From IMG/VR virus record IMGVR_UViG_3300031555_006030: a stretch of DNA of 64,000 nt. One strand, 5' to 3'. The notes beneath the pieces are model-generated. The model saw only the letters and a program-made list of their open reading frames with translations. It made no database searches and was not told the DNA's origin. A program made the translations under genes and the position numbers. This document shows, piece by piece, positions 10,845 to 49,825 of this stretch (position 1 is its first letter; every line of letters begins with the position of its first letter). The DNA is from a virus.

Positions 10845-12455
10845 GTGCTTAACTTGAATAACAGAATACAAGAGATTCATTCTAAAGGTTTTGATATAAG
10901 CACCCCAAGAAGTGCTCCAGTAGATGGAAATGTTATTCCAGAGTTGGACTATTCAAAGATAAAAGTAGGAATTAGACATCTTGACGACGCAGTCGTTAAT
11001 TTGGGTAATTATAAGAAACTTGATCCTCGTATGACAAAAGAGCGTATTTAGCAGGCTATTGCTAGAGGCGATATAGAGTTTATGAGAGAGGCTTCTGAGT
11101 TCTACTTTAAAGTAAGTGGTATTTATTCTAGACTTTGTAAACACCTTGCTAATTTTTATAGATACGACTGGTTCATTATTCCTTATGCTACTTCAAATAA
11201 AGTTACTCCAGATAAGATTATTGAAGGTTTTGATAAAAATAGTGCTTATCTCGATGCTTTTGGCGTAAAAGAGTATTTTGGCGAAGTGGCATTAAAAATA
11301 ATGCGCCAAGGGTGTTATTACGGATATATTATTGAGGATACAGATACTGCGCAAGTGCAAGAGCTTTTGCCAAGATACTGTAGATCAAGATATAGCGTAA
11401 AGGGACGTCCGGCAGTAGAGTTTAACATGAAGTTTTTTGATGACTTCTATAAAGATAAAGATCAGCGCCTTCGTATCTTAAAAATGTTTCCACGAGATTT
11501 TCAAAAAGGATATACTGCTTATATTAATGGATAGTTAATTCCAGACTTTCCTGGAGATACTGCGGGATGGTATTTGCTCGACCCAGAGCATACTATGAAA
11601 TTTAATATTAATGGCGAAGATTATCCTCCTTTTATTTCGGTTATTCCACATATTATTGATTTGGATGCCGCTCAAGAGTTGGATAGAAAGAAAATGGCTC
11701 AAAAGCTTCTCAAAATCATTATTTAGAAAATGCCATTAGATAAAAATGGCGATTTGATATTTGATGTTGATGAAGCACAACAGCTTCATAATAATGCTGT
11801 TAGAATGTTAGGTAAGGCTATTGGTATTGATGTATTAACAACTTTTGCAGAGGTAGAAGTTGCTGATATGGCAGATAAAAATACTGCTACTACTATTGAT
11901 GAATTAGAAAAGGTTGAGAGAACCGTTTATAATGAATCTGGTACTGCACAAAATTTATTTAATACCGATGGTAATATCGCATTAGAAAAGAGCATTCTTG
12001 ATGATGAAGCGAATATGTATAACCTTCTTCTTCAATTTTAGTCATTTTTAAATTATATTATCAAACCTTTGAATAAAAATCCAAAAAAGTTATATTATAA
12101 AGTTGAAATACTTCCTACAACAATTTATAATTATAAAGATATGTCAAAAATTTATAGAGAACAAAGCGCGCAAGGCGGCTCTAAGCTGCTTGCTAGCATT
12201 GCTTTAGGACAATCTCAATCGGCAGTTTTAGCAACTGCAAAGTTTGAAAACGAGGTTCTTGACATTTCTAGTCTCTTCCAATCTAAGCAACAAAAAGAAG
12301 AGGCAAAAGCAAAAATTCAAAATAGCAACAAACCTGCTGAAAATAATGAAAACAAGTAGGAAGAAGTTGTTGAAAAAAAGAAAGTCGGCAGACAAGAAAA
12401 GCCTGATGATCAAAAAAGCGAAAAAACAATTCGCAATAAAGAAGCTATGAGCTAA
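10845..12455 (+). CDS. portal protein (SPP1 gp6-like)
   Basis: Four in-frame track segments (10845, 11082, 11730, 12069) are separated only by TAG. YSRLCKHLANFYRYDWFIIP is a portal-like segment. TTG start; ends in TAA. Confidence 0.75.
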
Positions 12456-12472
12456 GGAGAGGAGAAACGCAA

Positions 12473-13894
12473 ATGCATAAATCAGTTGCTACGATAAGCT
12501 CTCCTGAGTTTATCAATTTACAACCCCTTGATATCAATCCACTTATGAGCGCCTGTGAGATTAAGGTCTTATATGTCGGTGAAAATCGAAACAGATCCTA
12601 TATTACCAAAGATGTCGCAACGGAAATGGCGAAGACATTACGCGGCGCGCCCATTGTTGGTTATTATAAGGAAGAAAAAGAAGACTTTAGAGACCATGGC
12701 CGTGAAGTTATTATTGATGACGAGGGCATTAAATTTAACTGCAAAACCGTTCCTTATGGTTTTGTAGCTCCAGACGCAAAGGTATGGTTTAAAGAATTTG
12801 AAGATACCAATGATTTTGGAGAAACTATTTTGAGAGAGTATCTAATGACTACTGGATATTTGTGGACCGGTCAATTTGAAGAGTGTAAGTCCGCCGTTGA
12901 GAGTGATGGCAAGCCGCAATCAATGGAATTGGATGAAGATACCTTACAAGGGCACTGGGAAACCAATACTCGTGGCATGGATTTCTTTATTATAAATGAC
13001 GCAATTTTTTCAAAACTTTGCATTTTGGGCGATGACATTGAGCCTTGTTTCGAAGGCGCTAGTGTTACTGCGCCAAATGTTAGTGCGTCTTTTACAAAGG
13101 TAGACGATACCTTTAGACAAACATTATTTACTATGATGCAGGAACTTCAAACTGCATTACAAGGAGGTCAGCAAATGAACAACGATGTTGTTGAAAATGT
13201 TGTTGTCGAGGAGCCTGTAGTTGAGTTTAGCGCTGAGCCTGAGTTTGAGCCGGTTGTTGAACCTAGCTTTGAGCCAGAGCCTGAGACACCAGCAGAACCT
13301 TCTTTTGCTGCATCACAAGAGCCAGTTGTTGAAGATGCGCCAGTCGTTGCTGAAGAGCCTGTGACTGAGCCTGTTGTGGATGAACCTGTAGTTGAGCCAG
13401 TTGCAGATCCAGAACCTGCGGCTGAACCTACTCCTATGGATCCTGAACCGGCGTCCGCGCCTTCTATAGAGGAGCAGTTTACTGCGCTTCAAGCAGAGTA
13501 TGCAGATCTTCAGAGTAGATTCTCTACTCTTGAGTCTGTCCACAATGATCTTCAATCTAGATTCTCAACTCTTGAAACTGCGCATGCAGAACTTGTTGAA
13601 TTTAAAAGACTAAGTGACGATGCAAAGAAAGATGAAATGATTGGAAAATTCTACATGCTTAGCGATGATGATAAGGCAGATATTATTTCAAACAAAGCTA
13701 ATTACACTGTAGAAGAAATTGAAGAAAAACTTTCTGTAATTTGTTTCAGAAAAAAGGTCAATTTTGAATTAGAGGATAACTCTAAAATTAATAATAAAAT
13801 AGAGCAACCAGCTGTGACATTTAATGTGTCCGACCTTGGCGTTGCTTCTAAGCCCGACTGGTTAAAAGCAGTCGATAATGCGAAAAATCAATAA
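12473..13894 (+). CDS. scaffolding protein (acidic; EPVV and LQSRFSTLE repeats)
   Basis: A 473-aa uninterrupted ORF between portal and capsid, with a coiled-coil/acidic repeat region and no TAG codons. Confidence 0.55.
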   Translation: MHKSVATISSPEFINLQPLDINPLMSACEIKVLYVGENRNRSYITKDVATEMAKTLRGAPIVGYYKEEKEDFRDHGREVIIDDEGIKFNCKTVPYGFVAPDAKVWFKEFEDTNDFGETILREYLMTTGYLWTGQFEECKSAVESDGKPQSMELDEDTLQGHWETNTRGMDFFIINDAIFSKLCILGDDIEPCFEGASVTAPNVSASFTKVDDTFRQTLFTMMQELQTALQGGQQMNNDVVENVVVEEPVVEFSAEPEFEPVVEPSFEPEPETPAEPSFAASQEPVVEDAPVVAEEPVTEPVVDEPVVEPVADPEPAAEPTPMDPEPASAPSIEEQFTALQAEYADLQSRFSTLESVHNDLQSRFSTLETAHAELVEFKRLSDDAKKDEMIGKFYMLSDDDKADIISNKANYTVEEIEEKLSVICFRKKVNFELEDNSKINNKIEQPAVTFNVSDLGVASKPDWLKAVDNAKNQ

Positions 13895-13914
13895 TTTTAA
13901 GGAGGACATATAGC

Positions 13915-14436
13915 ATGGCTACTACTATTAAGCGTATTGGATTTGGTCAGGTTGAGCCTAATCATTTATCCGCTCAAAGAAATGGTCAAGTTTACGCACA
14001 ACTTCCTTGTAATAAGGATATCGCTATTCTTGAGAATGGTCAGTTCGTAAAGTATGACTATAAAACTGGCGAAGTTAACTTCACAGGCGCCGGCGAGTGG
14101 ATGCTCGTTATGAATGAAGTTAAAATTTATGATGCAAGAGAGTCTTATAAAGATTTTGCTCTTGTAAAGACAAATTATGATGATGGAATTATGGTTCCTA
14201 GAGTTCTTGCAACTCATGTTGGAGATATTTACACTACAAACTGCCTTGAGAAGGGAAATACTTCTGGTAAGGCTGAACTTGTTGGTACTGAGGAAATTGA
14301 TGTTGGAACCGAGCTTAAGATTAACGCTCAAGGTTTCCTTTCTACCGAAGGTACTAGCGATATTGTATTCCAAGTTGTAAAAGTTTATACAATGCCTGAT
14401 GGCCAACAAGGCATCAAGGTTATGCGTATTCAATAA
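13915..14436 (+). CDS. hypothetical head protein (possibly decoration)
   Basis: 173-aa ORF with no TAG, located between the scaffold and capsid genes. Confidence 0.4.
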   Translation: MATTIKRIGFGQVEPNHLSAQRNGQVYAQLPCNKDIAILENGQFVKYDYKTGEVNFTGAGEWMLVMNEVKIYDARESYKDFALVKTNYDDGIMVPRVLATHVGDIYTTNCLEKGNTSGKAELVGTEEIDVGTELKINAQGFLSTEGTSDIVFQVVKVYTMPDGQQGIKVMRIQ

Positions 14437-14456
14437 TAAAAGGGAGGGAAATAGTA

Positions 14457-15494
14457 ATGGCATTAAATAGAGAAGATTTACGTACATTAGCAATGCAGAC
14501 AGCAGGCGCTAATCCTTCTGCTCCCGTTGCATACTCGTTTAGCGGCACTAATTATAGTTATGCAGATTTAAACCAAGCTCTTCGTAATGAGTTAAAAGAG
14601 CTTGTTGGTTCATATGCTCTTTGGAGAGAAAATCATAATGTTGTGTTTGCACTTATGGAAGAAATTATCACAGATAAACTTCCTGCCAAGGTTATGCAAC
14701 AATATGGCGCCTTCGCTGAAATTAAAACTTATAAACAGGGTGAAAAGCCTATCTTTACTCAAAAGATTACTGAGGCTTCTCGTAGACGTGCAAAGCAATT
14801 CGTAACCAAGGTTGGTTCTGCTGGTCGTTATGAAGTTTTCAAGCTTGATGGTCGTAGCTACGAAGTAACTACATCGGCTATCGGTGCAGCTTGTCAAATC
14901 GCTATTGAGGAATTCCTTGATGGACGCGTTGATATGGCTACCCTTATCGACATTATTATGGAGGGTATGGATGACAAGATTTATCTTGAAATCGCTAATG
15001 CTCTTATCGCAACTGTTGAGACAATTCAGACTGCGAATAAGTTTAAGACTGATAAGTTTGATGAAGGTGAAATGGATGCGCTTCTTGCAGTTGCCGATTC
15101 TTATGGTAATGGCAGATCTACGATCTATTGCACATTTGAGTTTGCATCTACAATGATTCCTGCAGAGGGTTGGGTATCTGACACAATGAAGGATCAAATG
15201 TGGGCAAATGGTTACCTTGGTAATTACAAGGGACATCAAGTAATTGTTCTTCGTCAGTCTTTCACTGATGAAACAAATACAAAGAAAGTCATTGATCCTG
15301 CTTATGCTTGGATTATTCCTGGCGGAGCTGAAAAGCCTGTTAAGATTGCCTTTGAAGGTGATACTTGCATTAAGGAAGAGGATAATGATGACTGGTCTAA
15401 GGGCATTCACTTCTATAAGAAGGTTGGAGTTGCCGCTATCGTTAATAATGATATTTGTGTTTATCAAAACACATCTCTCACACTTGATAGATAA
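14457..15494 (+). CDS. major capsid protein
   Basis: 345-aa ORF in the expected position, followed by a strong terminator. No TAG. Confidence 0.65.
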   Translation: MALNREDLRTLAMQTAGANPSAPVAYSFSGTNYSYADLNQALRNELKELVGSYALWRENHNVVFALMEEIITDKLPAKVMQQYGAFAEIKTYKQGEKPIFTQKITEASRRRAKQFVTKVGSAGRYEVFKLDGRSYEVTTSAIGAACQIAIEEFLDGRVDMATLIDIIMEGMDDKIYLEIANALIATVETIQTANKFKTDKFDEGEMDALLAVADSYGNGRSTIYCTFEFASTMIPAEGWVSDTMKDQMWANGYLGNYKGHQVIVLRQSFTDETNTKKVIDPAYAWIIPGGAEKPVKIAFEGDTCIKEEDNDDWSKGIHFYKKVGVAAIVNNDICVYQNTSLTLDR

Positions 15495-15504
15495 TTAAGA
15501 TAAA

Positions 15505-15550
15505 GCAAGAGGGAAGAGAAGATATACTTCCCTTCCCTCTTAAATTTTTT
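15505..15550 (+). terminator. rho-independent terminator after the capsid gene
   Basis: An agagggaag...cttccctct stem is followed by TAAATTTTTTA. Confidence 0.5.
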
Positions 15551-15573
15551 AGGAGATAAAAGGAGTTAAAAAT

Positions 15574-16152
15574 ATGTTAAATAACACTGATAAAATTAGA
15601 ATTGAAAATAGATCTAATTCTATTGTTTCGTATCATGTGCCAGAATCCAATACTATTAGACGTTTTGTTGGAAATGAAGTAAAAGAAGTTTCTATGGGAG
15701 AATTGCGTCAAGCGATTCAAATTCCCGGCACTAGAAGATTAATTGAAAGTGATTTAATTATTCATAGCAAAGAAGCAGTCGATGAATTGCTACCTAATGC
15801 TGAGCCCGAATATTTTTATAATACTAAGGATGTAGAGTTTCTTTTAGAGCGTGGTACACTTGATCAGCTTTATGATGCTCTTGACTTTGCGCCAGAGGGT
15901 GTCGTTCAACTAATTAAAGATGAAGCTGTTAAGACCAATCTTAATGATATGCGCAAGAGAGAGGCTATATTAGAGAAAACAAACTTTGATGTTACTAAGG
16001 CTATTGAAATTAGACGCTTAAGTGAAACTGCAGTTAAAACCGAAGTAAAAACAAGACGCGCAACCCCTTTAACTGAAGATGCTGTTGAAAATAAGTCTGA
16101 AACACCTACAAGACGCATGAGCGCGCCTAAGTATACTATCGTCAAAGAATAA
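15574..16152 (+). CDS. hypothetical structural protein
   Basis: 192-aa ORF with no TAG. Confidence 0.45.
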   Translation: MLNNTDKIRIENRSNSIVSYHVPESNTIRRFVGNEVKEVSMGELRQAIQIPGTRRLIESDLIIHSKEAVDELLPNAEPEYFYNTKDVEFLLERGTLDQLYDALDFAPEGVVQLIKDEAVKTNLNDMRKREAILEKTNFDVTKAIEIRRLSETAVKTEVKTRRATPLTEDAVENKSETPTRRMSAPKYTIVKE

Positions 16153-19686: not shown

Positions 19687-20424
19687 TTGGTTTTACTCTC
19701 TGGAGCAGATATTCCTTTTGTTGAAGGAACTGTAACCATTCACTAGCCAAAATTATATGAAATCTCTATGCTTGGAGAAGAGGCTTTATTTATTGGCTGT
19801 GAATTGTTGCGTTTTAGCAAAGATATATTAAATATTGAGGACAAAAATAGATTAATCAATTAGAAAGATTTTAATATATTAATGTCGATAATGAATGATA
19901 ATAGTGAATCAATGATATTTAATGTATCTTGTGCAAAACAAGTGTTAGAATTAATTTTCCCATTGTATGAAGTTATTTATACTCCAATGGCAATTTTACT
20001 TGTTGATCGGAATGATAGCACTACTTTGTGTGGAGAAATTAATTCAGAGAATTTTGATGCTTTTAAAGATATCTTAAATTAGATGTTTTGTTTAAAAAAA
20101 GCATCCTCTGCGCCTACTTATAACGCGTAGAGCGAATTAGCGAAACAGATTGCGGAAAAGTTTAAGCGTAGACAACAAAAGCTTGCCGAATTATAGTCGT
20201 CTACTAGTAAAAAGAAAATTGCAGTCTTTAGTAGATATATTTCGATATTAACAGTTGGATAGCATAAGGATATGAATTCTTTTATGTAGTACACTGTTTA
20301 TCAATTATTTGATGAATTTCAGCGGTGGGAGCTTAAAGTAGCTTTTGATAGTTATGTATAGGCGCGCATGGCTGGGGCAAAAGATTTAGAAGAACCTTAG
20401 GATTGGATGAAAGACCTCCATGAA
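19687..20424 (+). CDS. hypothetical protein (tail terminator position)
   Basis: TTG start; in frame with ORF 19882. Codons were checked one by one; six TAG codons; ends in TAA. Confidence 0.4.
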
Positions 20425-20465
20425 TAAAAGTTCTTAATATTAAAATTATAAGGAGGATAAGTCCT

Positions 20466-21347
20466 ATGAAATTTGGCGTACGCGAAATATGCAATGTCGT
20501 TTTCAAGGCTAAGTCACAGGTTAAGATTGGTAATACTACTTTCCAAGCCGGTCAACCCGTCCTTTATATCGATAGTGCAAAAACTTCTACTCTTGAAGGT
20601 GCTGCTACAACAGTTTATGCAACCGGTGGACGTGGAAATTCAAGATTACTTGCTTGGGAAGGAGAGAAGACTTTAACATTTACTGTTGAAGATGCTCTTC
20701 TTTCTCCTATTGGATTTGCTATTCTTTCTGGAGCAGGTCTTTTCAAGGGTAAGGAAGGTGACTCTGAAAAGGTTCATGTTCATGCAACGGCAACCGTCTC
20801 TTTTGATGATGAAGGTAAAGTTGATTTAGCTAACGCTTTATCTGCGTATGATGGCACAGAAGAACTTGATACAGTATCTCCTATTTATGTTTTAGAGATG
20901 GATGGAGACGATATTGTAGGTGAACCTAAAACAGCAACAGCAACAGCTGAAAAAACTACCATTACGGTAACTGGTTTAGAAGGAAAAACAGCATTTGTAG
21001 ATTTCTACATTTTAAAAGATGCTGGTAAAGTAAGTGAGCTTCAAATTGACGCTGAAACTTTTGCTGGCTACTTTTATGTTGAAGCCAACTGCCTATTCAA
21101 GAGAAAGAAGGATGGAGTTGATATGCCTGCAGAATTAACACTTCCTAAGGTTAAGATTCAATCTAACTTTACTTTCAGCATGGCGGCAACTGGCGATCCT
21201 TCAACATTTACTTTCACAATGGATGCAATGCCTGATTACACATTCTTTGATAAGACTCGTAAAGTTCTTTGCGCAGTTCAAATTATTGAGGATGCTGTTG
21301 GCGGAAATATCGTTGTTGATTCAGTATTTGACGAAGATTACGTCTGA
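20466..21347 (+). CDS. major tail protein
   Basis: 293-aa TAG-free ORF upstream of the chaperone and tape-measure genes, followed by a terminator. Confidence 0.6.
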   Translation: MKFGVREICNVVFKAKSQVKIGNTTFQAGQPVLYIDSAKTSTLEGAATTVYATGGRGNSRLLAWEGEKTLTFTVEDALLSPIGFAILSGAGLFKGKEGDSEKVHVHATATVSFDDEGKVDLANALSAYDGTEELDTVSPIYVLEMDGDDIVGEPKTATATAEKTTITVTGLEGKTAFVDFYILKDAGKVSELQIDAETFAGYFYVEANCLFKRKKDGVDMPAELTLPKVKIQSNFTFSMAATGDPSTFTFTMDAMPDYTFFDKTRKVLCAVQIIEDAVGGNIVVDSVFDEDYV

Positions 21348-23141: not shown

Positions 23142-23170
23142 TTGACAAGTTAAAAAATTTTTTCTATAAT
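23142..23170 (+). promoter_or_regulatory. consensus sigma-70 promoter inside the late module
   Basis: TTGACAagttaaaaaattttttcTATAAT has a 17-nt spacer. Confidence 0.55.
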
Positions 23171-23211
23171 ATATATAGAAAACAAATCGAGATAAAAGGA
23201 GATTAATTAAT

Positions 23212-23730
23212 ATGAATTTTAAAGATTTAGATATTAAATTAATAAATGAATATAATACTTTTAACTTTAACGGTAATGAAATTAAAGTATTAAAATATCT
23301 TCCAATTGAAGATAAATTTGATTTAATTATGATTGCTCTTCAAAAATCTGTTACTAATGGTATTTATAATCCAATTAGACTTCAAACATTTTTTGAATTA
23401 AATATTATGTATCTTTATACTGATATTTTATTTGAGGTTGAGGAAAGAGTTGATGAAGGAGTACTTTATGATAAAATTAAAACATCGGGCCTCTTAGGAA
23501 AAGTGATGGAAAATATTGAAGAAAGCGAGATGCTTGAATTAAGTCACTTTTTGAGTGAGTGTTTAGAACTTGAAAAGAATTATCGCAATAGTGCGGCTGC
23601 AATTGTATCCAAAATTGTTGATGATTTGCCAAAGAACGCAGAAGCTGCAAAAGACATTGTTGATAATTTTGATAAAGAGAAGTATAGTGAAGCTTTAAAT
23701 TTTGCCAGATCCATTGGAATGAAGATTTAA
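23212..23730 (+). CDS. putative tail assembly chaperone
   Basis: 172-aa acidic TAG-free ORF directly upstream of the tape-measure gene. Confidence 0.4.
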   Translation: MNFKDLDIKLINEYNTFNFNGNEIKVLKYLPIEDKFDLIMIALQKSVTNGIYNPIRLQTFFELNIMYLYTDILFEVEERVDEGVLYDKIKTSGLLGKVMENIEESEMLELSHFLSECLELEKNYRNSAAAIVSKIVDDLPKNAEAAKDIVDNFDKEKYSEALNFARSIGMKI

Positions 23731-23734
23731 GGTC

Positions 23735-23795
23735 AATTTAAATTAATATAATTACCCTATTTATTATAATTAATAAGTAGGGTATTTTTATATCC
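23735..23795 (+). terminator. hairpin plus T-run after the chaperone gene
   Basis: taccctatttat...ataagtagggta is followed by TTTTTA. Confidence 0.4.
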
Positions 23796-23819
23796 AATAA
23801 AGAGTTAAAGGAGGATATT

Positions 23820-26800
23820 ATGGGTAAAAATTAGGCAAGATTAGGTATTGGTATTGATTTTAATGTTAATACTGCTAGTTTAAATAATGTAAAGTAGTCT
23901 CTTGAGAAACTAAGAAAAATGAGCAAGGATGAAATTGAAAAATCTGGAGGCAATATTCTTGGCTTATCTAATATGAAAACAAAAAGCTGGAAAAACGATC
24001 TTGGCGATATGCGAAAAGAATTAGCATCATTGGAAAAGGCCTTTGAAGCAGCGTATAATCCAAAACTGGGTACATATGAATTAAATAAATTTAATGAAAG
24101 CTTGAAAGTGTCTGGAACTACTGCAGGATAGGCCTTTGCCACCATTGCAAATTATGGCACCGAGGGAAAAACAGCATTGCTTGATATGACTACAAGTATG
24201 TTAGCTATTGACCGAGTTGGGAAACAAACAAATGAAACCTTTAAAAAACTTGGCGATACAATGATGAATACCATTAGATGGACTATTACATCTACAATTA
24301 TTAACAGTATTTCAAGCGCTATTCAATAGGCATTTAATTATGCGGTAGATTTAGATGGTGCACTGAATGATATTATGATTGTTACCGATAAATCTTCGCG
24401 TGAAATGGAAAATTTTGCAAAATCTGCGAACAAGGCGGCAAAAGAGCTTGGCGCCTCTACTCGAGATTATACAGAAGCATCTTTAATATATTATCAATAG
24501 GGTTTAAGTGATGCAGAAGTTAAGGCGCGTACAGAAACAACTGTAAAAGTAGCTGCTATCACAGGATAGAATGCAGATGTTGTTTCTAAACAACTTACTG
24601 CTGTATGGAATGGTTATAAGGTTAGTGCCGAAGAGTCAGAAATGTATATTGATAAACTTTCTGCCGTTGCAGCAAGTACCGCAGCCGATCTTGAAGAATT
24701 ATCAACTGGTATGTCTAAAGTGGCTTCGGCTGCTAATGTTATGGGTGTTGGAGCTGATTCATTAAACGCTTAGCTTGCAACAATTGTTTCAGTTACTCGC
24801 GAAGCACCAGAATCTATTGGTACAGCTTTAAAAACAGTATATGCGCGTATGAGTGATATTGAAGCTGGACTAGATACTGAAACCACATTAGGTGAGTACA
24901 CTTCTCAAATGGCTCAAATGGGCATTAACGTACTAGATGCTAATGGTAAATTGCGTGATATGGAAGATATTATTAATGAAATCGGTAACGGATGGTCAAC
25001 CATGACTCGCGAATAGCAAGTATCCTTGGCGCAATCTATTGCTGGTACTAGATAGTATTCCCGTATGATGGCATTATTTGATAATTGGGGCATGTATCAA
25101 GAACAGTTTAATGTCTCTATGGAAGCTACTGGTACTTTAAATCAATAGCATATTGAGTACCTATAGTCGATTGAAGCACATCAAAACAAATTAAAAGCTT
25201 CGGCCGAAGGATTATATGATGCAATTTTTGATTCAGACTCTATTAAAGGAGTTTATGATGTTTTAAGTGGCTTTACTGAAATGGTAACTGGTTTAGTTAA
25301 AGGTTTAGGTGGAATGCCAGGTATCCTTTCTGTTATGTTAATGTTAATTACCACTCTTGGAAAAAGAAACATGCAAGATCTTATAATAAAAAGAGAGTCT
25401 AATAAGTTACAGGCATAGCTGTATAGAACATAGATGGAAAATAGTTAGGCTACTATTAAAAGTCTTGAAGAAGAAGTAAAAGGTCGTACGGAGTTAAAAG
25501 AATAGCTTCAAGACATCTTAGATCTTGAAAAAAGAATTATTGAATAGTCAGATAATTTAACTGATGATTAGTTTAATAATTTATAGGCTGGTATTAAACA
25601 ATATGCTGAAAATTTAAAGGCTGTTATTGCTATTGAAAAAGAATATAATAATATTAAAGCTGAACGAGATCAATTAAAGTAGTCTTTATCAGGTGAAACT
25701 ACTCAAACTTTTAAAAATGAAGCTGGCGAAAGAGTTGTAAGTTATGATTTAAAAAATAAAGAAAATGTAAAAGGAAGAATAGGAACAATAGAAGCGCGAA
25801 AGCGGTTATCCGACTTGGAAAAGGCAGAACATAAGGCCACTTTTAATCAAAATGCAAAATAGCTAACAAAACAAGAGTAGGATGAATTAAAATTTTTAAG
25901 AGAGTATTTACCATTAGCTGAGCGTAAATTAAAACTAGACGAAGAGTTAAAAAAAGCAGAAGAAAAATTAGCTAATGCAACTGAAAACACTGCTAACGCT
26001 AATAAAAACTTAAAAAGTAGTATGAATGACAGTCTTGATGCAGTAGGGCGCGCGGCAGTTGTGACTGAGGTTGCATAGGGGATTGCCTCGGTTGGCATGA
26101 CTGCAGCGATGGCTTCGGGGGCAGTACAATCTTTTGCAAGCGCTATGAGCGCTTCTGGAGGAGGCTTTTCAGATTTTCTTGGAGGTATTACCGGAGTAGC
26201 GGGTGCAGCTGGCTCAATGATAGGTAATATTACAGCTGCAAACAGAGCATTAAAAAAAGCAGGGCCTACTGCGCAAAGAGTAGGAGCAAAAATTTAGCTT
26301 GCTTTTGGCTGGGTAAGTCTTGTAATCGGTGCTCTTTCTGCGTTAATTTAGATAGTAAAGGAATTTAATTAGGCGCAAATAGATAGCGCAAATGCTACAA
26401 TTGAAGCAGAGCGAGAGAGATAGAAAGAACTTTAGAAAACCTTAGATTTAGAATAGTCTTTTTTAAAATTATATGAAACATATCAAAAAACTGGTGAAGA
26501 AACTGAATAGTTAATTTCTGCTACGGAGTAGATGTGTGAAGCTCTTGAAAGCTCTTAGTTAAAAGCTCTTGCCGCAGCTGGAGCATATGATTAGTTAGCA
26601 GCGTCTATTAGAGACAAAACTTCTGCAACATATGATGATTTGGCACAATCTGCTAATGCAGAAAAAAGCGCGGCAGAGACGAAATTAAACAAAGTAAAGG
26701 CTTCTAACACTGGAGGTATTGCAAATGCATCAGAAACTCTGGATTATATTAACGCAGGAGATTCTGTAACAGATGGAGATGCAGAAAACTTAGAAATTTT

Positions 26801-29423
26801 AAAAAATATTTTTGAAAACAGTAATAATGATAAAGTACGAGCTTTAATTTCACATAGCGATGACTATAATATTTGGTTTAAACGCATGGCCAATATGACA
26901 GCTGAAGAAAAATCATTATTTTACCATGCCCTTAAAGAGGCCACCGCGCAAGATGGATGGAATACAAGTTCAAAAAGTGAGCTAAATAAGAAAGTTCGAA
27001 AAATTTTAGATGATGAAGATTTTGCAGGAGCTGTTGCTGATTATGATACCGCAAATAAAACTGGTTCCACTGCGAAGGTTGCAAAATCAGTTAGTCAAAA
27101 CTCATATTCAAAATCGACCTCTATAAGCTAGTTTAAAACAGATCGTGAAGCTCTTATTTAGGATATAAAAAACTCACAAAATATTGACTATGACACCGCT
27201 GCTTCACGAGTAGATGCCCAATATGCTAAGGTAGGAGATTCAAATGCTTAGGCATTATTGGCTAGAACATAGTGGTTACAAGGTAGTGTTCAAGCAAAAA
27301 CTATGACACAAGAATTTGCGGATGAGTTAGCAGGAAAAATATCGTTAGATCAGCTAGGCACATCAGGTTTTAATGCATTAAAAACAATTGATTTATCAAC
27401 TTTTACCGGCTCTGCAAAAGATCTTGTGGATGCAGCAAAGACAAAGGCAGTTGAGCTACAAGATGAAGCATGGACTGAGTTTGGAGAATCTCGTCTTAAA
27501 GTTCTTGAAAAAAATTATAACGATTTAGAAAAAACTATTGATGAATCAGTTGGCTCGGATAAAGCAAAAAAGATTTTAGAGTTAAATAAAAATCTAGAGG
27601 CTTAGCAAGTAATTTTGTAGTCCCTTAGTGAAGAAGAACAAAAAGCTTTTGATAAAAAAGTAAAAGAATTTAAAACAAAAACAGGCATTGATTATACAAA
27701 TCCAGAAGATGCTAAGGACTTAATTGCAAAAAAATATGCTAATGATGAAGATAAAAGAGCAGAATATTTATAGTTGCTACAAGATGTAACTACTGCTGAA
27801 ATAGCCTATAACGATGCCACTAAAGCGGTTACTGAAAATCAAGAGCAAATATATCAAAAGAAACTTGAATCATTTGATACAGAGCTTGAATATTTAGACA
27901 CTTTAAAAAGTCGTTATGAGAGTCTTCAAGGTACTCTTTAGGAAGTTGCAGACTTATACAAGAAAATTTATGGTGAAAATGAATTTTCTAAAATGGTTGA
28001 GTTGTACGATTCTATGGCATTGTTATCTTCTACGTCTTATGGAAAAGCTGGAGAGAAATATCAAACATTACTAAATGCGACGAATCAGGGTGGTTTTACG
28101 GGCGCCGATGGGGTTTGGTATAGTTTTGAAGATGACGCCTCTCGACAAAAATATTTAGATGAGCTTGTTGCGGCAGGAGGAGATTATGTAAGTGCATTAA
28201 CAAGTCATGTTGAGCTTCTTAGAGAGAAGATGGCTAATAGTATTAATGCAGCTTTTCAAGAGAGTGCAAAAAGAGCTACTGGCAAAGGTCTTGATTATCT
28301 TGATCGAGAATGGAGATATATTCAAGAAGATGCAGATAAATATTTAGATACAGTAGAAAAAACTTATCGCATTGAAAACCTTGAACTTGATGTTAAAGAG
28401 AAAATTAATAAGTTGACTAATAAGAGCGCCTAGGCGCGCCTTTCTAGTGAACTTGATAGACAGCTTAGCGTTTTGCGCGAAATGGATAAGCTTTCTGAAG
28501 AAGATATTACTCGCGCCGAACAAAAACTTTCACTTCTTGAAGCTGAGATTGCTCTTGAGAATGCGCGTAATAATAAAAATAAGATGCGTTTAGTTCGTGG
28601 AGCAGACGGCACTTATAGTTATCAATATGTGGCAGATCAATAGGCTATTGCTGCCGCCGAGAGGTAGAAGAGAGAGGCTCAATAGGCAGTTTATGACTCT
28701 TCTAAATCAAGTTACATGGGCACTGTTGATGAATTTAATTCATTGCGCTAGTCTTTTGCTGAAGAATATGCGTCTGCCGCAACCGATAAAGACAAATAGC
28801 AAGTAGTGGCTAAATATAGAGAGTGGTTTGGCACAGCCATAGAGCGTAATCAAGTCGCTTTAGGTGATTTTAGAAAAGCTGGAGGAACAGCTAGTTCTGG
28901 AATGCAAACTTGGTTAGATGCTTTCTCTACTGGTGGTAGCAATGCTTTAATGGAGGAATTAATTAAAGCGGCAGAGGCTACTAATTACACCGATGAAATT
29001 AAATCTATCACTGGAGATGTTGGTAACATTGCTAGTGATATTAGAGGTATGGCTGAAAAATTTGGAATATAGCCATCTTCCAATGACACAGGAGGATATA
29101 CAGGTTCTTGGGGATTAGATGGTAGACTTGCAATTCTTCATGAAAAAGAGTTGGTTCTTAATAAACAAGATACTAGCAATATTTTGCAATCTGTAGAAAT
29201 TGCGCGAGCTCTTTAGTCTAAGATGCTTGATACTGTCTCTTCAATGCGCGTAACCCCAATGACGCGCGCATTTACAGATTCTAATAATTCTTCTACTATT
29301 GAACAAAGAGTAGAAATTCATGCAGAGTTTCCAAATGCTACTAATCATAGTGAAATTGAGCAAGCTTTTGATAATCTTGTTGGATTAGCTACATAGCATG
29401 CCTATAAAAATACTCGTGGATAA
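23820..29423 (+). CDS. tail tape measure protein (about 1867 aa; about 50 in-frame TAG codons)
   Basis: Track ORFs 23919, 26097, 26640, 27303, 27993 and 28806 are all congruent mod 3 with the ATG at 23820. The protein is long, coiled-coil-rich, alpha-helical and Ala/Gln-rich; it ends in TAA at 29421. Confidence 0.75.
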
Positions 29424-40798: not shown

Positions 40799-41303
40799 AT
40801 GTCAGAATTTTTACAATTGCTAGCTACATATGATATTGTAACAATTTTAACTATTGCTATTCTTGTAATAGTTGGTATTTACAAATTAATTGTATGGAGT
40901 AAGAAAACTTGGGCGCAGAGAGAAGTCTTTAAGAAAGAAAATATTGAAAAAGGTGTAGAAATTCAGCGCCAAAAAGATAAGGAACTTGAGGCTGAGCAAG
41001 AAGAAGAAACTCGTTTACAAAGACTTGAGTCAGCTATTGAAGCTCTTGCTCTTGTAAACGAAGAACAACAAAAACATATTGCTCTTTTAATTGAGTCTGA
41101 TTAGCTTAACATCAAAGCTTGGATTAAAGATCAGCATGAGAAATGGATGGCGCTTGGCGCAATAGATAGTCAAAGTTTAGACCTATTGGAATAGCGCTTC
41201 GGAATATACGAAGAAGAGGGCGGCAATAGCTGGGCGCGCCGCCTTATGGATGATATTAGAGGATTACCTTTAATTACCGTGGTTCCAGTTCATCCAGAAT
41301 AGT
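40799..41303 (+). CDS. membrane protein with an N-terminal transmembrane helix and coiled coil (holin-like or XhlA-like candidate)
   Basis: Hydrophobic segment TYDIVTILTIAILVIVGIYKLIV; in-frame TAG codons; ends in TGA. Confidence 0.35.
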
Positions 41304-41335
41304 GATAAATTAAGAGATAAAAGGAGTTGATAAAT

Positions 41336-46474: not shown

Positions 46475-46480
46475 TATAAA

Positions 46481-46592
46481 AATAAAGGAACTCAATTTGA
46501 GTTCCTTTTTTATTGAAAGAATTAGTTTAATTGAATTTTAATTGAATAGGGTTAAAATGATTTCCTCATCACATTGATGAGGATTTTTTTAT
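46481..46592 (+). terminator. two tandem rho-independent terminators
   Basis: ggaactcaatttgagttcc plus a T-run, and cctcatcacattgatgagg plus a T-run. Confidence 0.5.
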
Positions 46593-46688
46593 TCACCTGC
46601 TAAATTTTAAAATTTATATCAAAATTAAATAAAAGCATTAGTTAAATTTTAATATAAATTTGAACAAGAGTGAAAGGAGTTCAAAAGT

Positions 46689-47159
46689 ATGTATAATAAT
46701 CTATCTCAGGCACCTGCATATTATTATGTGCCACAACAATTTTAGAGAGGCGCGGCGGCCGCTCAAGGATCTTTAGACCAGACCCCTACTCAAACGGCAA
46801 TGACCGGCGCCCCATATCCAATGCCTTCTCTATTGCCAGCGCAACAAAATTTTATTAAAGGTCGTCCAGTAGTTTCGATCGACGAAGCAAGAGCTAGTCA
46901 GATTGATTTAGATGGTTCACTTTATGTTTTCCCTGATCTAGGAAATAAGAAAATTTACACCAAATAGATCAATATGGATGGAACTGCAACCTTTAATGTG
47001 TTTGAGTTAACTGCGCCTGCGAAAGAGGCGCCAGCCCCGGTTTATGTTACCAAAGACGAGCTTGACGAAATTTTAACTAACTTTAAAGCATCCTTAGTCT
47101 AGGCAAAACCGAAAGAAGCTGCACCGGCGCCCAAACCAACACAAAATTTTAATCTATAA
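46689..47159 (+). CDS. hypothetical protein
   Basis: Stitched through three TAG codons; ends in TAA. Confidence 0.35.
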
Positions 47160-47170
47160 GGAGGTATAAC

Positions 47171-47419
47171 ATGTCTTACAATGTAGACCCCGCATATTTA
47201 ATTATGCAAATGCGTCAAGGTAAAAACCCTGAGCAACTTATGATTGACATTCTCGAAGGAGAAGCGTCCTAGAACCCAATTATGGGAAACCTATTGACAA
47301 TGGCAAAAGATAATCGTACTGCAGATATTGAAAGATTTGCGCGTAATCTTGCTAAGGAATAGGGTATTGATTTTGATAAGGAATTCAGTAGATTCAAAAA
47401 GCAGTATTTTGGACTCTGA
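47171..47419 (+). CDS. hypothetical small protein
   Basis: Two TAG codons; ends in TGA, which I checked. Confidence 0.35.
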
Positions 47420-47455
47420 TTTCTAAATATATTTTATTAAAGGAGGACATTAATT

Positions 47456-48319
47456 ATGTTCAATTCAACAACTGGATACTCTTTATCCGACATCGCTGCT
47501 GTAACAGGTAGCAATAGAGGAAATGGTGGTTTCGGTGATGGCTTCGGCGAAAACGGATGGTGGATCATCCTTTTATTCCTCTTCACTGGATGGGGAAGAA
47601 ATGGCTGGGGTGGAAACGGTGGATCTAATGATGGAAACGGATACATGATCAACCCTTATTTCTGCGGCTCAGCTCCATGTGCAACTAAAGATGATGTTCG
47701 TGCAGCCATTGATCAGCAAACTCTCGTTTCTAAACTCGATAACCAGACCTATGGTTTGGCCGACAGTACCTATGCATTAAGCAATGCAATTACAAGTGGT
47801 TTCCATGGAGTAGACAACGCTATCTGTACTCTTGGTTACCAAAATCAGGCTGGTTTCACTGCTCTTGGTAATCAGTTAGCTAATTGTTGCTGCGATACTC
47901 GCGCCGCAATCGCTGACGTGAAAACTCAAGGTGTGATGAATACCAACGTACTCTCAAGCCAGCTCGCCGCTTGTTGCTGCGACCTTGAGAAATCTTCTAT
48001 GGAAGATCGTTTTGCCGCTCAAACCTATAACTGCAATACGCTTCAAGCTATTGACAAACTTGGCGACAGAATCATTGACTTTATGACTCAAGACAAGATC
48101 GCTTCTCTTACTGCAGAGAATCAGTCTCTTAAGTTCGCCGCTTCTCAGGCTGCTCAAAATGCGTTTATTACTGCAAACCAAGATGCGCAGACTGCAGAGC
48201 TTATTCGTAGACTTTCTACTCCTTGTCCCGTTCCAGCATATGTGGTTCCCAACCCTAACTGCTGCTACGACTATCAAGTAACTAGAAACTACGGTTGCGG
48301 AAGCTGCTCTAGCTTCTAA
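47456..48319 (+). CDS. Gly-rich membrane protein with a YjcZ-like N-terminus and a Cys-rich (CCCD) C-terminal domain
   Basis: The N-terminus reads GNGGFGDGFGENGWWIILLFLFTGWGRNGWGGNGG, followed by CCCD repeated twice and CCYDY...GCGSCSSF. No TAG. Confidence 0.5.
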   Translation: MFNSTTGYSLSDIAAVTGSNRGNGGFGDGFGENGWWIILLFLFTGWGRNGWGGNGGSNDGNGYMINPYFCGSAPCATKDDVRAAIDQQTLVSKLDNQTYGLADSTYALSNAITSGFHGVDNAICTLGYQNQAGFTALGNQLANCCCDTRAAIADVKTQGVMNTNVLSSQLAACCCDLEKSSMEDRFAAQTYNCNTLQAIDKLGDRIIDFMTQDKIASLTAENQSLKFAASQAAQNAFITANQDAQTAELIRRLSTPCPVPAYVVPNPNCCYDYQVTRNYGCGSCSSF

Positions 48320-48345
48320 TTAATTAAATGGAGGCTTAGATAAGA

Positions 48346-48765
48346 ATGGAATTAACAGCTAATGCTCTACAAACAGTAGAGGTAAATCAGAATGTTTTAT
48401 TTACTGATACTCCCGTATGTGGTAGCTGTAGCATACTCCATCGTGATGGCAGTGGTCAAGTGACTCTTCGTGGAATCACTAGCCAATGTCGCGCAAGATT
48501 TAAGGCTTTCTTCAGCGGGAATATTGCTATTCCCGCTGATGGAACTGTTGAGGCAATCTCACTTGCGCTTGCGATCAATGGAGAAGCTATTGCATCTACA
48601 ACAATGATTCAAACTCCTGCAGCAGTTGAAGAGTTTGCTAATGTGGCTAGCGCAGTGTACATTGATGTTCCTGCAAATTGTTGTGTAACAGTCAGTGTAA
48701 GAAACACAAGTGCTCAAGCTATTGATATTCAAAATGCAAATTTAATTATCGAAAGGGTGGCATAA
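48346..48765 (+). CDS. BclA C-terminal-domain-like (C1q/TNF-fold) protein
   Basis: The C-terminus ...PANCCVTVSVRNTS...NANLIIERVA resembles the ...SIIIEKVA ending of BclA. No TAG. Confidence 0.45.
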   Translation: MELTANALQTVEVNQNVLFTDTPVCGSCSILHRDGSGQVTLRGITSQCRARFKAFFSGNIAIPADGTVEAISLALAINGEAIASTTMIQTPAAVEEFANVASAVYIDVPANCCVTVSVRNTSAQAIDIQNANLIIERVA

Positions 48766-48784
48766 TATGGAAAAATTAAAGTAG

Positions 48785-49483
48785 ATGAAAGAGGCGCTTG
48801 TGGGTTGCGTTCAAGGCCAGATCTATGGTAACATGGAAAAGGTTGATGCGCAAGAATTGGGCGCCGCAGTGGATATGATTAAAGATCTTTCAGAAGCCAT
48901 TTACTATTGCACAATTACAGAAGCAATGGAAGAAGAGGGCGAAGGAAAAGAAGAAAAAGGCAAGCACGGAATGATGTATTATCCTCGCACTACTCCAATG
49001 TATCATATGCCTTACCCTATTGAAATGTATGATCCTCGTTATAGAGAGAGATATAACTCTGGCTCTATGTACGCGCAAAATTCTGGCGGAAATAGCGGCA
49101 GTGGCTCTTCTAATGGTGGTAACAATGGATCTAACTCTAATAGCGGCAATATGCGCGGATATCATGAAGGTATGATGCCGATGGAAGAACCATGGCGTCC
49201 TATGTATAATGATGGTTCTATGTATGCAATGTATGAACGCGGTGGAAATCGCAATTACATGGAAGGAATGATGCGCGATCCTAGAGAAGGAAGAAGCGGT
49301 GAACGCCGCAAGATGTATATGGAAGGTAAAGGAATGAAGGATAAAACTCATCAAATGAAAGAGCTTGAAACTTACATGACCGAGCTTTCTCAAGACTTAA
49401 CCGAAATGATTCAGGATGCTTCTCCTGAAGAAAAACAATTATTACAACAAAAGATTAGCACTCTCGCAACAAAAATTAAATAA
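48785..49483 (+). CDS. low-complexity Met/Tyr/Gly-rich protein (spore-coat-like composition)
   Basis: It contains MMYYPRTTPMYHMPYPIEMYDPRYRERY and MYAMYERGGNRNYMEGMM. No TAG. Confidence 0.45.
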   Translation: MKEALVGCVQGQIYGNMEKVDAQELGAAVDMIKDLSEAIYYCTITEAMEEEGEGKEEKGKHGMMYYPRTTPMYHMPYPIEMYDPRYRERYNSGSMYAQNSGGNSGSGSSNGGNNGSNSNSGNMRGYHEGMMPMEEPWRPMYNDGSMYAMYERGGNRNYMEGMMRDPREGRSGERRKMYMEGKGMKDKTHQMKELETYMTELSQDLTEMIQDASPEEKQLLQQKISTLATKIK

Positions 49484-49485
49484 TC

Positions 49486-49806
49486 ATGTTCACAATAAAC
49501 GGAGAACAATGGTGGATAGTCTTAGTAATGCCATACGACGTTGCACTTTTAATGCCGAACGGTGACTTTGCTATTGGGGCGTGTAATGACTCTACTAAGA
49601 CTATTTATATCAGCAATGAACTTCATGGTGAGGCATTTGAAAAAGTATTGTGTCATGAGCTAGTCCATGCCGCTATGTTTGCATATGATGTTAGGTTAGA
49701 GCACGATGAAGAGGAGTTGTTAGCGGAAATAATCGCTACTTTTGGCGAGGAAATAATAGATTTGACTGATATAATGTTCGAGAGAATAAGAAGAGGAAGA
49801 TATTAA
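49486..49806 (+). CDS. ImmA/IrrE-like (DUF955) HExxH metallopeptidase-domain protein
   Basis: TIYISNELHGEAFEKVLCHELVHAAM matches the family pattern. No TAG. Confidence 0.45.
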   Translation: MFTINGEQWWIVLVMPYDVALLMPNGDFAIGACNDSTKTIYISNELHGEAFEKVLCHELVHAAMFAYDVRLEHDEEELLAEIIATFGEEIIDLTDIMFERIRRGRY

Positions 49807-49825
49807 AATCTTCCTCTTTTATTTT
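49785..49825. terminator. bidirectional hairpin terminator closing the late module
   Basis: aagaggaagat/atcttcctctt is followed by TTTATTTTT. Confidence 0.5.

Follow-up and report, generated by a model that had tools for sequence, protein, structure and literature searches.

A conserved late-gene module encoding a BclA-type jelly-roll protein in a TAG-recoded gut phage

Results

We analyzed a set of late genes in IMG/VR virus record IMGVR_UViG_3300031555_006030, a 64,000-nucleotide stretch of viral DNA that we call the window. Among these genes are three, g1, g2 and g3, which a previous reading of the letters alone (the sequence-only reading) had described as a TAG-free trio resembling spore-surface proteins. 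The open reading frames (ORFs) that it drew, at 47456-48319 (287 amino acids), 48346-48765 (139 amino acids) and 48785-49483 (232 amino acids), 658 codons in all, are present, and so are the peptides that it quoted: a Gly-rich N terminus with WWIILLFLFTGW and two CCCD motifs in the g1 product, a C-terminal NANLIIERVA in the g2 product, and a Met/Tyr/Gly-rich g3 product. Our analysis showed that g2 is a BclA-type jelly-roll domain, that the three genes belong to a larger module found in many gut phages, and that their low TAG content is a matter of degree.

All three genes lie on the plus strand. Two terminator-like hairpins upstream (46484-46508 and 46563-46583, whose stems have 11 and 9 pairs and precede runs of T) close the tail-gene operon and set the upstream boundary of the module. 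Its first gene, gA (46689-47159, plus strand), encodes 156 amino acids with a Tyr/Pro/Gln-rich N terminus, a small beta-rich core that is conserved and a helix at the C terminus, and it matches phrog_21718 (function unknown). It is followed by gB (47171-47419, plus strand; 82 amino acids, helical). As the sequence-only reading said of the neighbors, both carry in-frame TAGs, three in gA and two in gB; because of its two TAGs, gB is missed by standard-code ORF calling, and its region looks like a 297-bp intergenic gap. After g1, g2 and g3 comes g4 (49486-49806, plus strand; 106 amino acids, no TAG), which starts 2 nucleotides past the g3 stop codon, and a bidirectional terminator-like hairpin at 49789-49820 ends the late module. 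The intergenic gaps measure 2 to 36 nucleotides, and Shine-Dalgarno sites precede gA, gB, g1 and g2. This layout shows a single six-gene late operon, gA-gB-g1-g2-g3-g4, co-transcribed between terminators, with g1, g2 and g3 as its promoter-distal core. Its late timing follows from the TAG density of gA and gB, which is at the normal late-gene level. A search for a late-promoter motif shared upstream of the late operons gave none, and the ribosome-binding site alone recurred.

The GC content of the module (47000-49800) is 0.41-0.45, versus about 0.31-0.36 in the adjoining late genes. The GC content at third codon positions (GC3) of g1, g3 and g4 reaches 0.36-0.39, which no other late gene equals (0.16-0.32). 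These values are compatible with import from a higher-GC phage, though the GC3 of g2 is ordinary (0.24).

The operon closes a late (structural) block that runs on the plus strand from about 5100 to 49806 and in which TAG is a sense codon. Coverage by long ORFs nearly doubled once TAG was read as sense, the late genes hold 195 TAGs in 13,185 codons (1.48%), and a single 1,894-codon frame (23742-29423) contains 49-50 of them in frame. Orthologue alignments paired TAG most often with Gln. The phage of the window is thus a TAG-to-Gln recoded (genetic code 15) gut phage. ARAGORN found no tRNA and no suppressor tRNA(CUA) in the 64-kb window, which is part of a genome of probably 135-175 kb. A published TAG-to-Gln gut phage, phAss-1, has a predicted Clostridia host (PMC10607447) and 36 tRNA genes in its genome, including three for suppressors. 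The capsid-like protein of the window (14457-15494) is 47% identical to the phAss-1 counterpart and shares 39% identity with its counterparts in 140-kb Enterococcus phages. The phage belongs to the phAss-1/Herelleviridae-like lineage, and its host is probably one of the Clostridia. The earlier suggestion of a Firmicute host, here of class Clostridia, is plausible on three counts: the strong Shine-Dalgarno sites, related loci mostly in Clostridia metagenome-assembled genomes (MAGs), and the kinship with phAss-1. Past the 49789-49820 hairpin, the minus strand carries convergent early genes with dUTPase-like, NrdG-like and NrdD-like ORFs. Within the late block, an ORF at 40799-41305 (168 amino acids, three TAGs) is holin/BhlA-like by architecture only, its N-terminal transmembrane helix leading into a coiled coil; the part of the window that was examined yielded no endolysin.

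For g2 (48346-48765, no TAG), an AlphaFold model based on an alignment of 55 diverse family members reached a pLDDT of 92.3, was all beta and had a compact TNF-like jelly roll, with ectodysplasin A and the C1q/TNF family named alongside it. The window g2 itself had no Pfam match at E values up to 10, and the g2 profiles A4 and A6 did not retrieve BclA chains from the PDB. Among 121 representatives of the g2 family, however, 10 matched the Pfam family BclA_C (PF18573; best E value, 1.2e-7), a link to the window g2 that is transitive. The jelly-roll model and these matches together identify g2 as a divergent, stand-alone BclA_C-type domain, and the BclA-C-terminal C1q/TNF fold that had been proposed from the sequence is borne out.

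The g2 family is large (5915 matches in the first search; 1047 representatives at 50% clustering), and g2 matches phrog_20016 with an E value of 6e-57, a PHROG annotated “unknown function.” The 150 best representatives are 93-196 amino acids long, and none is fused to a stalk. A pair of cysteines, C112-C113, is invariant. Across divergent large phages, g2 is 57-72% identical, whereas the adjoining tail genes are unrecognizable or 28-41% identical over partial length. Foldseek against viral models returned similar gut-phage proteins of 130-145 amino acids, two of which had been automatically named “BclA protein” (A0A8S5S925 and A0A8S5SGY1). A phmmer match of g2 to the phycobilisome linker Glr2806 (E value, 1.6e-5) was rejected as a summed-repeat artifact, its per-domain E values being 1.9-170.

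The g1 product (47456-48319, no TAG) consists, from N to C terminus, of a disordered Gly-rich segment, an aromatic/hydrophobic stretch of 12 residues, another Gly-rich segment, a pair of long helices (78-158 and 163-254) that carry CCC motifs, and a Pro/Cys-rich tail (PCPVPAYVVPNPNCC..GCGSC). The monomer model was poor (pLDDT, 50.6), and only its secondary structure, including the two long helices, was used. Against phrog_16490, also annotated “unknown function,” the E value was 1.5e-49. Homologues occur in many gut phages, among them Butyrivibrio phage Ceridwen, phages of C. perfringens, the crAss-like phage cr116_1 and an isolated Bacteroides phage, C3_41T2LP; those of C3_41T2LP and cr116_1 are annotated “viral fiber” and “spike protein.” They keep the same architecture (Gly-rich, 10-12 aromatic hydrophobic residues, Gly-rich, CCC helices, and a Pro/Cys tail ending in GCGC), and the cysteines conserved are those of CCC, CC and GCGC; C144-146 is invariant across the homologues of Firmicute and Bacteroides phages.

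The likeness of g1 to small YjcZ-type sporulation proteins did not hold up. Neither g1 nor the N termini of five homologues gave a YjcZ-type match in NCBIfam (TIGR01732) or Pfam at E values up to 10, and g1 has 287 amino acids, versus at most about 50 in the YjcZ family; the likeness is compositional. The coiled-coil matches to HA2 and VP80 were not significant (E values, 0.12-6) and gave no class I fusion or spanin-like identity for g1. Its hydrophobic core of 10-12 residues is short for a membrane-spanning helix.

The g3 product has helical ends and a low-complexity center rich in Met, Tyr, Gly and Arg; in its overall composition, Met makes up 11%, Tyr 8% and Gly 12%. The homologue at locus L006 matches phrog_28802. 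No spore-coat or exosporium family matched g3 in Pfam, NCBIfam or PHROG, and the spore-coat likeness previously attributed to g3 is one of composition alone. Sequence and profile searches of the PDB with g1, g3 and the profiles A1, A4, A6 and A7 returned nothing significant. The g4 product carries an HExxH motif within LCHELVHAAM, of which HELVH is conserved in 12 orthologues. Its Pfam matches, SprT-like (E value, 6.7e-5; 23.1 bits against a cutoff of 25.6) and M78 (20.3 against a cutoff of 22), both fall below the cutoff, and its PHROG matches are phrog_1233 (1.4e-13) and phrog_87, a metallo-protease (7.9e-5); we refer to g4 as a small putative zinc metallopeptidase of SprT/M78-like type. Taken together, the Pfam, NCBIfam, PHROG and PADLOC scans of g1 to g4, gA and gB yielded only PHROGs of unknown function and the weak g4 peptidase matches.

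Next, we looked at the module in other phages. Scanning species-representative genomes with the g2 profile gave 80 loci, nearly all in gut or rumen Clostridia MAGs. The gene g1 lay directly 5' of g2 at 84 of 86 loci; among these 86, g3 was downstream in 69, gA lay upstream of g1 in 44 (CPD1_036 of C. perfringens phage CPD1 is a gA homologue), gB likewise in 43, and g4, directly 3' of g3, in 13. Two kinds of context recurred. In one, the module sits in a head-gene cluster, between Phage_min_cap2 (minor capsid) and Phage_scaffold or the major capsid protein (L089-L091, L096, L100, L006, L007 and L083); in the other, it follows tail, holin and endolysin genes and precedes early genes (L097, L098, L099, L102, Ceridwen and CPD1). 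The window copy, at the end of the late region before the early genes, belongs to the second, post-lysis class. Of the cultured carriers, Ceridwen (MN882553) has gB, g1, g2 and g3, CPD1 has gA, gB and g1, and C3_41T2LP has g1. At one locus (L101; JAMPDR010000023.1, 311-11086), the genes preceding the module are those of an M23 endolysin and a holin, and host genes for NADH dehydrogenase and Fe-hydrogenase adjoin it directly, a prophage-end (moron) position. The module is also common in phages without sign of recoding. Neither phAss-1 nor the Enterococcus and Bacillus relatives found via the capsid-like protein gave a match to g1, g2 or g3. The strong conservation of g2 beside diverged tail genes and the absence from relatives indicate a portable accessory module under strong purifying selection.

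Some companion genes vary. Small siphoviruses and prophages carry a conserved gene of about 126 amino acids, gZ, just 5' of gA (L089, 7494-7871; L097, 7108-7488; L096, 6200-6580; L100, 5304-5684; L101, 2248-2631). Its invariant Cys17, His97 and Asp108/111 resemble, on motif grounds only, the triad of papain- or transglutaminase-like enzymes, and neither Pfam nor the PDB gave a match. The window lacks gZ and has g4, with its HExxH motif. The module seems never to be without a peptidase-like gene of some kind. Post-lysis copies have a conserved helical gene of about 103 amino acids 3' of g3 (L097, 9889-10197; L102, 8878-9189; L098, 9871-10185; L008, 1367-1687), of which no counterpart was found in the window. 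In Bacteroides phages, small ORFs 3' of the g1 homologues (L003, 5494-7766; L004, 5469-7038) mirror the style of the module: they are Cys-containing and beta-rich, short and Tyr/Asp/Arg-rich, or of the HExxH type. None could be taken as a g2 equivalent (hhalign with the g2 profile, probability below 2%), and comparison of their HExxH ORFs with g4 gave a probability of only 19-25%, which does not establish homology. Literature searches returned nothing on this module, which is widespread and functionally uncharacterized and has its fold link to known proteins through g2 and the BclA tip.

We then examined how free of TAG the three genes are. As drawn, g1 to g3 have no in-frame TAG in 658 codons, and this part of the earlier claim stands; calling ORFs with TAG as a stop necessarily makes them TAG-free. 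Together, the gA and gB of this operon hold five TAGs, and g3 most likely holds one itself. In all 11 relatives examined, g3 starts 6 to 8 codons further upstream, with a conserved M-E-x-L-K-x-(M/L/I)-K-E, and the codon aligned to the window ATG at 48785 is CTA or ATA in 3 of the 11; in the window, a Shine-Dalgarno sequence, GGGTGG, precedes an ATG at 48767. The starts of the relatives, the CTA or ATA codons and the Shine-Dalgarno site therefore make 48767-49483 (238 amino acids) the most likely extent of g3, with TAG as codon 6 (48782-48784), in place of the 232-amino-acid ORF from 48785. The peptide MEKLKQMKEALVG is the product expected from the 48767 start with TAG read as Gln. A more speculative point concerns TAGATG at 48782-48787: were TAG a stop, termination and reinitiation there could yield the 232-amino-acid g3.

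The TAG-free condition is also shared by other genes. Six further late genes of at least 130 codons contain no TAG (12440-16152, with four in a row; 20424-21347; and 23170-23730). The TAG-free set includes a scaffold-like acidic coiled-coil protein, the capsid-like protein of 345 amino acids at 14457-15494, so called because of its position, its size and its kinship to proteins of large Firmicute phages that are all annotated as hypothetical, and a protein whose ORF (20466-21347) belongs with phrog_2729, “virion structural protein.” The pattern points to TAG avoidance as a mark of abundant structural proteins, the gene identities being partly established. Under a uniform Poisson null, the P value was 5.8e-5 for no TAG in 658 codons and 5.7e-4 for one in 664; under a null with per-gene rates drawn from the observed late genes, it rose to about 0.02 for zero TAG and about 0.05 for one. 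TAG density did not correlate significantly with GC or GC3. Since TAG density varies widely among late genes, the absence of TAG alone should not be taken for a regulatory signal.

Orthologues in the related recoded phages (L009, L011, L013, L015, L025 and L035) do use the codon. We counted 5 in-frame TAGs in 3223 codons of g1 (0.16%), 12 in 2221 of g2 (0.54%) and 13 in 2813 of g3 (0.46%), often at conserved Gln positions and, in g2, at the nearly invariant Q9, Q15, Q124 and Q129. Across recoded relatives, gA has 1.5% and gB 1.8% TAG, and g1 to g3 are about three to ten times lower, which indicates some lasting, partial avoidance of TAG and not independence of a suppressor. The depletion in g1 to g3 is thus real but modest, and it is neither unique to them nor conserved. 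The proposal that these genes are expressed independently of TAG decoding is not supported, given the TAG decoding that gA and gB need, the probable TAG of g3 and the TAGs of the orthologues.

We consider it probable that the TAG-free run is a functionless by-product of standard-code ORF calling and of gene-to-gene variation in TAG, possibly with recent import from a standard-code phage. Besides the mis-set start of g3, the six other TAG-free late genes, the P values of 0.02-0.05 under the overdispersed null and the TAGs of the orthologues, this explanation is favored by the GC content and the GC3 of g1, g3 and g4 given above and by the occurrence of the module in phages without sign of recoding. 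The lower TAG density of g1 to g3 relative to gA and gB across recoded relatives and the ordinary GC3 of g2 count against it. It is compatible with a role of the module in the virion, to which we now turn.

Discussion

Our tentative interpretation, drawn from gene context, is that this portable late module builds a cysteine-stapled stalk-and-knob surface structure on the virion. The proteins would be made late in lytic infection and assembled in the cytoplasm, since g2 and g3 lack a signal peptide. g1 would form an oligomeric stalk and g2 the knob, the two being stapled by cysteines; g3, gA and gB could be linkers or assembly factors, and the g4 peptidase a processing enzyme. The product would be a decoration like the exosporium nap, most probably on the virion surface. 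In this interpretation, the low TAG content of g1 to g3 is a matter of degree, as in other presumably abundant late proteins, and no device for expression without a suppressor; it may also reflect acquisition from standard-code phages.

Several observations weigh against a virion structure. The module also lies outside structural clusters, in the post-lysis copies and at the prophage end. Its spread over siphovirus-, myovirus- and crAss-type genomes is easier to reconcile with a function independent of the virion, and phAss-1 and the Enterococcus and Bacillus relatives do without it. No stalk is fused to g2 in any of the 150 best representatives, and the high conservation of g2 is unlike that of a receptor-binding tip. 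The g1 model, with its pLDDT of 50.6, gives no view of the oligomeric state or of a g1-g2 contact.

The main rival, which we regard as rather unlikely, is an accessory module (moron) that acts on the envelope of the infected or lysogenic cell and not in the virion. Here, g1 would insert into the membrane by means of the hydrophobic, Gly-rich segment, and with g2 and g3 it would make up a complex in the membrane or at the surface; superinfection exclusion, lysis control or envelope remodeling are possible roles. The Gly-flanked hydrophobic segment, which is conserved in all g1 homologues, the positions after holin and endolysin or beside host hydrogenase genes, the portability across unrelated virion types (Bacteroides phages included) and the absence from related large phages all agree with such a function. 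They have to be set against the shortness of the g1 hydrophobic core, the lack of a signal peptide or lipobox in g2, g3, gA and gB, the many phages that hold the module within the head-gene cluster, the TAGs of gA and gB, which link it, in recoded phages, to the late phase that depends on the suppressor, and the lack of a PADLOC match.

A broader version of the stalk-and-knob interpretation, which we consider improbable, is that of a self-contained kit, carried from one gut phage to another unrelated one, for a cross-linked coat or hair of the exosporium kind. The knob would be of the BclA type and the stalk helical and stapled by cysteines; linkers of low complexity, rich in Tyr and Gly, and a dedicated peptidase would complete the kit, and the coat or hair would sit on virions or, where the module is at a prophage end, on the spores or cells of lysogens. 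The earlier idea of cargo fares unevenly: the post-lysis positions and the single prophage end beside host genes are in keeping with it, and the many copies inside the head-morphogenesis clusters of siphoviruses are not.

That the cargo is destined for the spore surface, translated without TAG decoding in lysogeny or during host sporulation and placed on spores like exosporium proteins, is very improbable: the BclA_C-like g2 (to which ExsFA, an exosporium protein that stands alone, is also structurally close), the Cys/Gly/Tyr-rich g1 and g3, reminiscent of coat and exosporium proteins, the missing signal peptides, which would fit assembly in the mother cell, the probable Clostridia hosts and the one prophage with the module at its end are outweighed by TAG-dependent gA and gB in the same operon, the probable TAG at g3 codon 6, orthologue TAGs at conserved Gln, the lack of a YjcZ or coat-family match, head-cluster positions, g1 homologues in phages of Bacteroides hosts, which do not sporulate, and the large, virulent-type appearance of the window phage (nrdD/nrdG and dUTPase ORFs; lysogeny genes were not searched for). 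Nor was there any match to the sigma-E, -K, -F or -G promoter consensus in 46480-47460 or 48300-48800, the consensus being that of B. subtilis, from which clostridial variants could escape.

Within a large, abundant group of gut Clostridia phages, the module ranks among the better conserved gene sets, and its relatives in the databases number in the thousands. A BclA-like surface layer, if the module does form one on virions, would represent a new type of phage decoration, with possible consequences for particle stability, for adhesion to mucus or cells and for immune recognition; a coat or hair kit would parallel, on the phage side, the nap of Bacillus spores and could influence how stable the particles are or how they adhere in the gut. 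For recoded phages more generally, a gene that is TAG-free under the standard code can be an artifact of start placement. Here, the sequence-only reading was right about the fold of g2, its YjcZ and spore-coat calls reflected composition, and its TAG-free signal was in part an artifact of ORF calling.

Among known systems, g2 has the fold of the C-terminal domain of BclA, found at the tip of the anthrax spore hair (F-BclA tip fibrillum of Bacillus endospores; PF18573; 1wck, 3twi and 9h38). It lacks the N-terminal targeting domain and the collagen-like stalk, so that the full-length BclA architecture of exosporium-targeting segment and GXX repeats is not found in g2, whose 139 amino acids are the domain alone. 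In addition, it is phage late operons, not sporulation regulons, that encode g2. ExsFA/BxpB, a stand-alone TNF-like protein of the exosporium basal layer (7r1m), shares no detectable sequence similarity with g2, for which a spore location is unsupported, and g1 is no homologue of ExsY/CotY (no Pfam match). The TNF-like knobs of phage fibers (the Sf6 tail-needle knob, 3rwn; PRD1 P5, 1yq8; the tail fibers of cyanophages A4 and A-1(L), 9k09/8ke9; and TM4 gp23, 9n6a) are fused to stalks and usually variable, whereas the g2 knob is a separate, highly conserved gene. In UniProt, automated annotation already gives the BclA label to similar small gut-phage proteins, the viral “BclA protein” entries. 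Finally, the phAss-1 group (PMC10607447) shares with the window phage the genome size class, the TAG-to-Gln recoding of structural genes and a predicted Clostridia host, and it differs in having no match to g1, g2 or g3.

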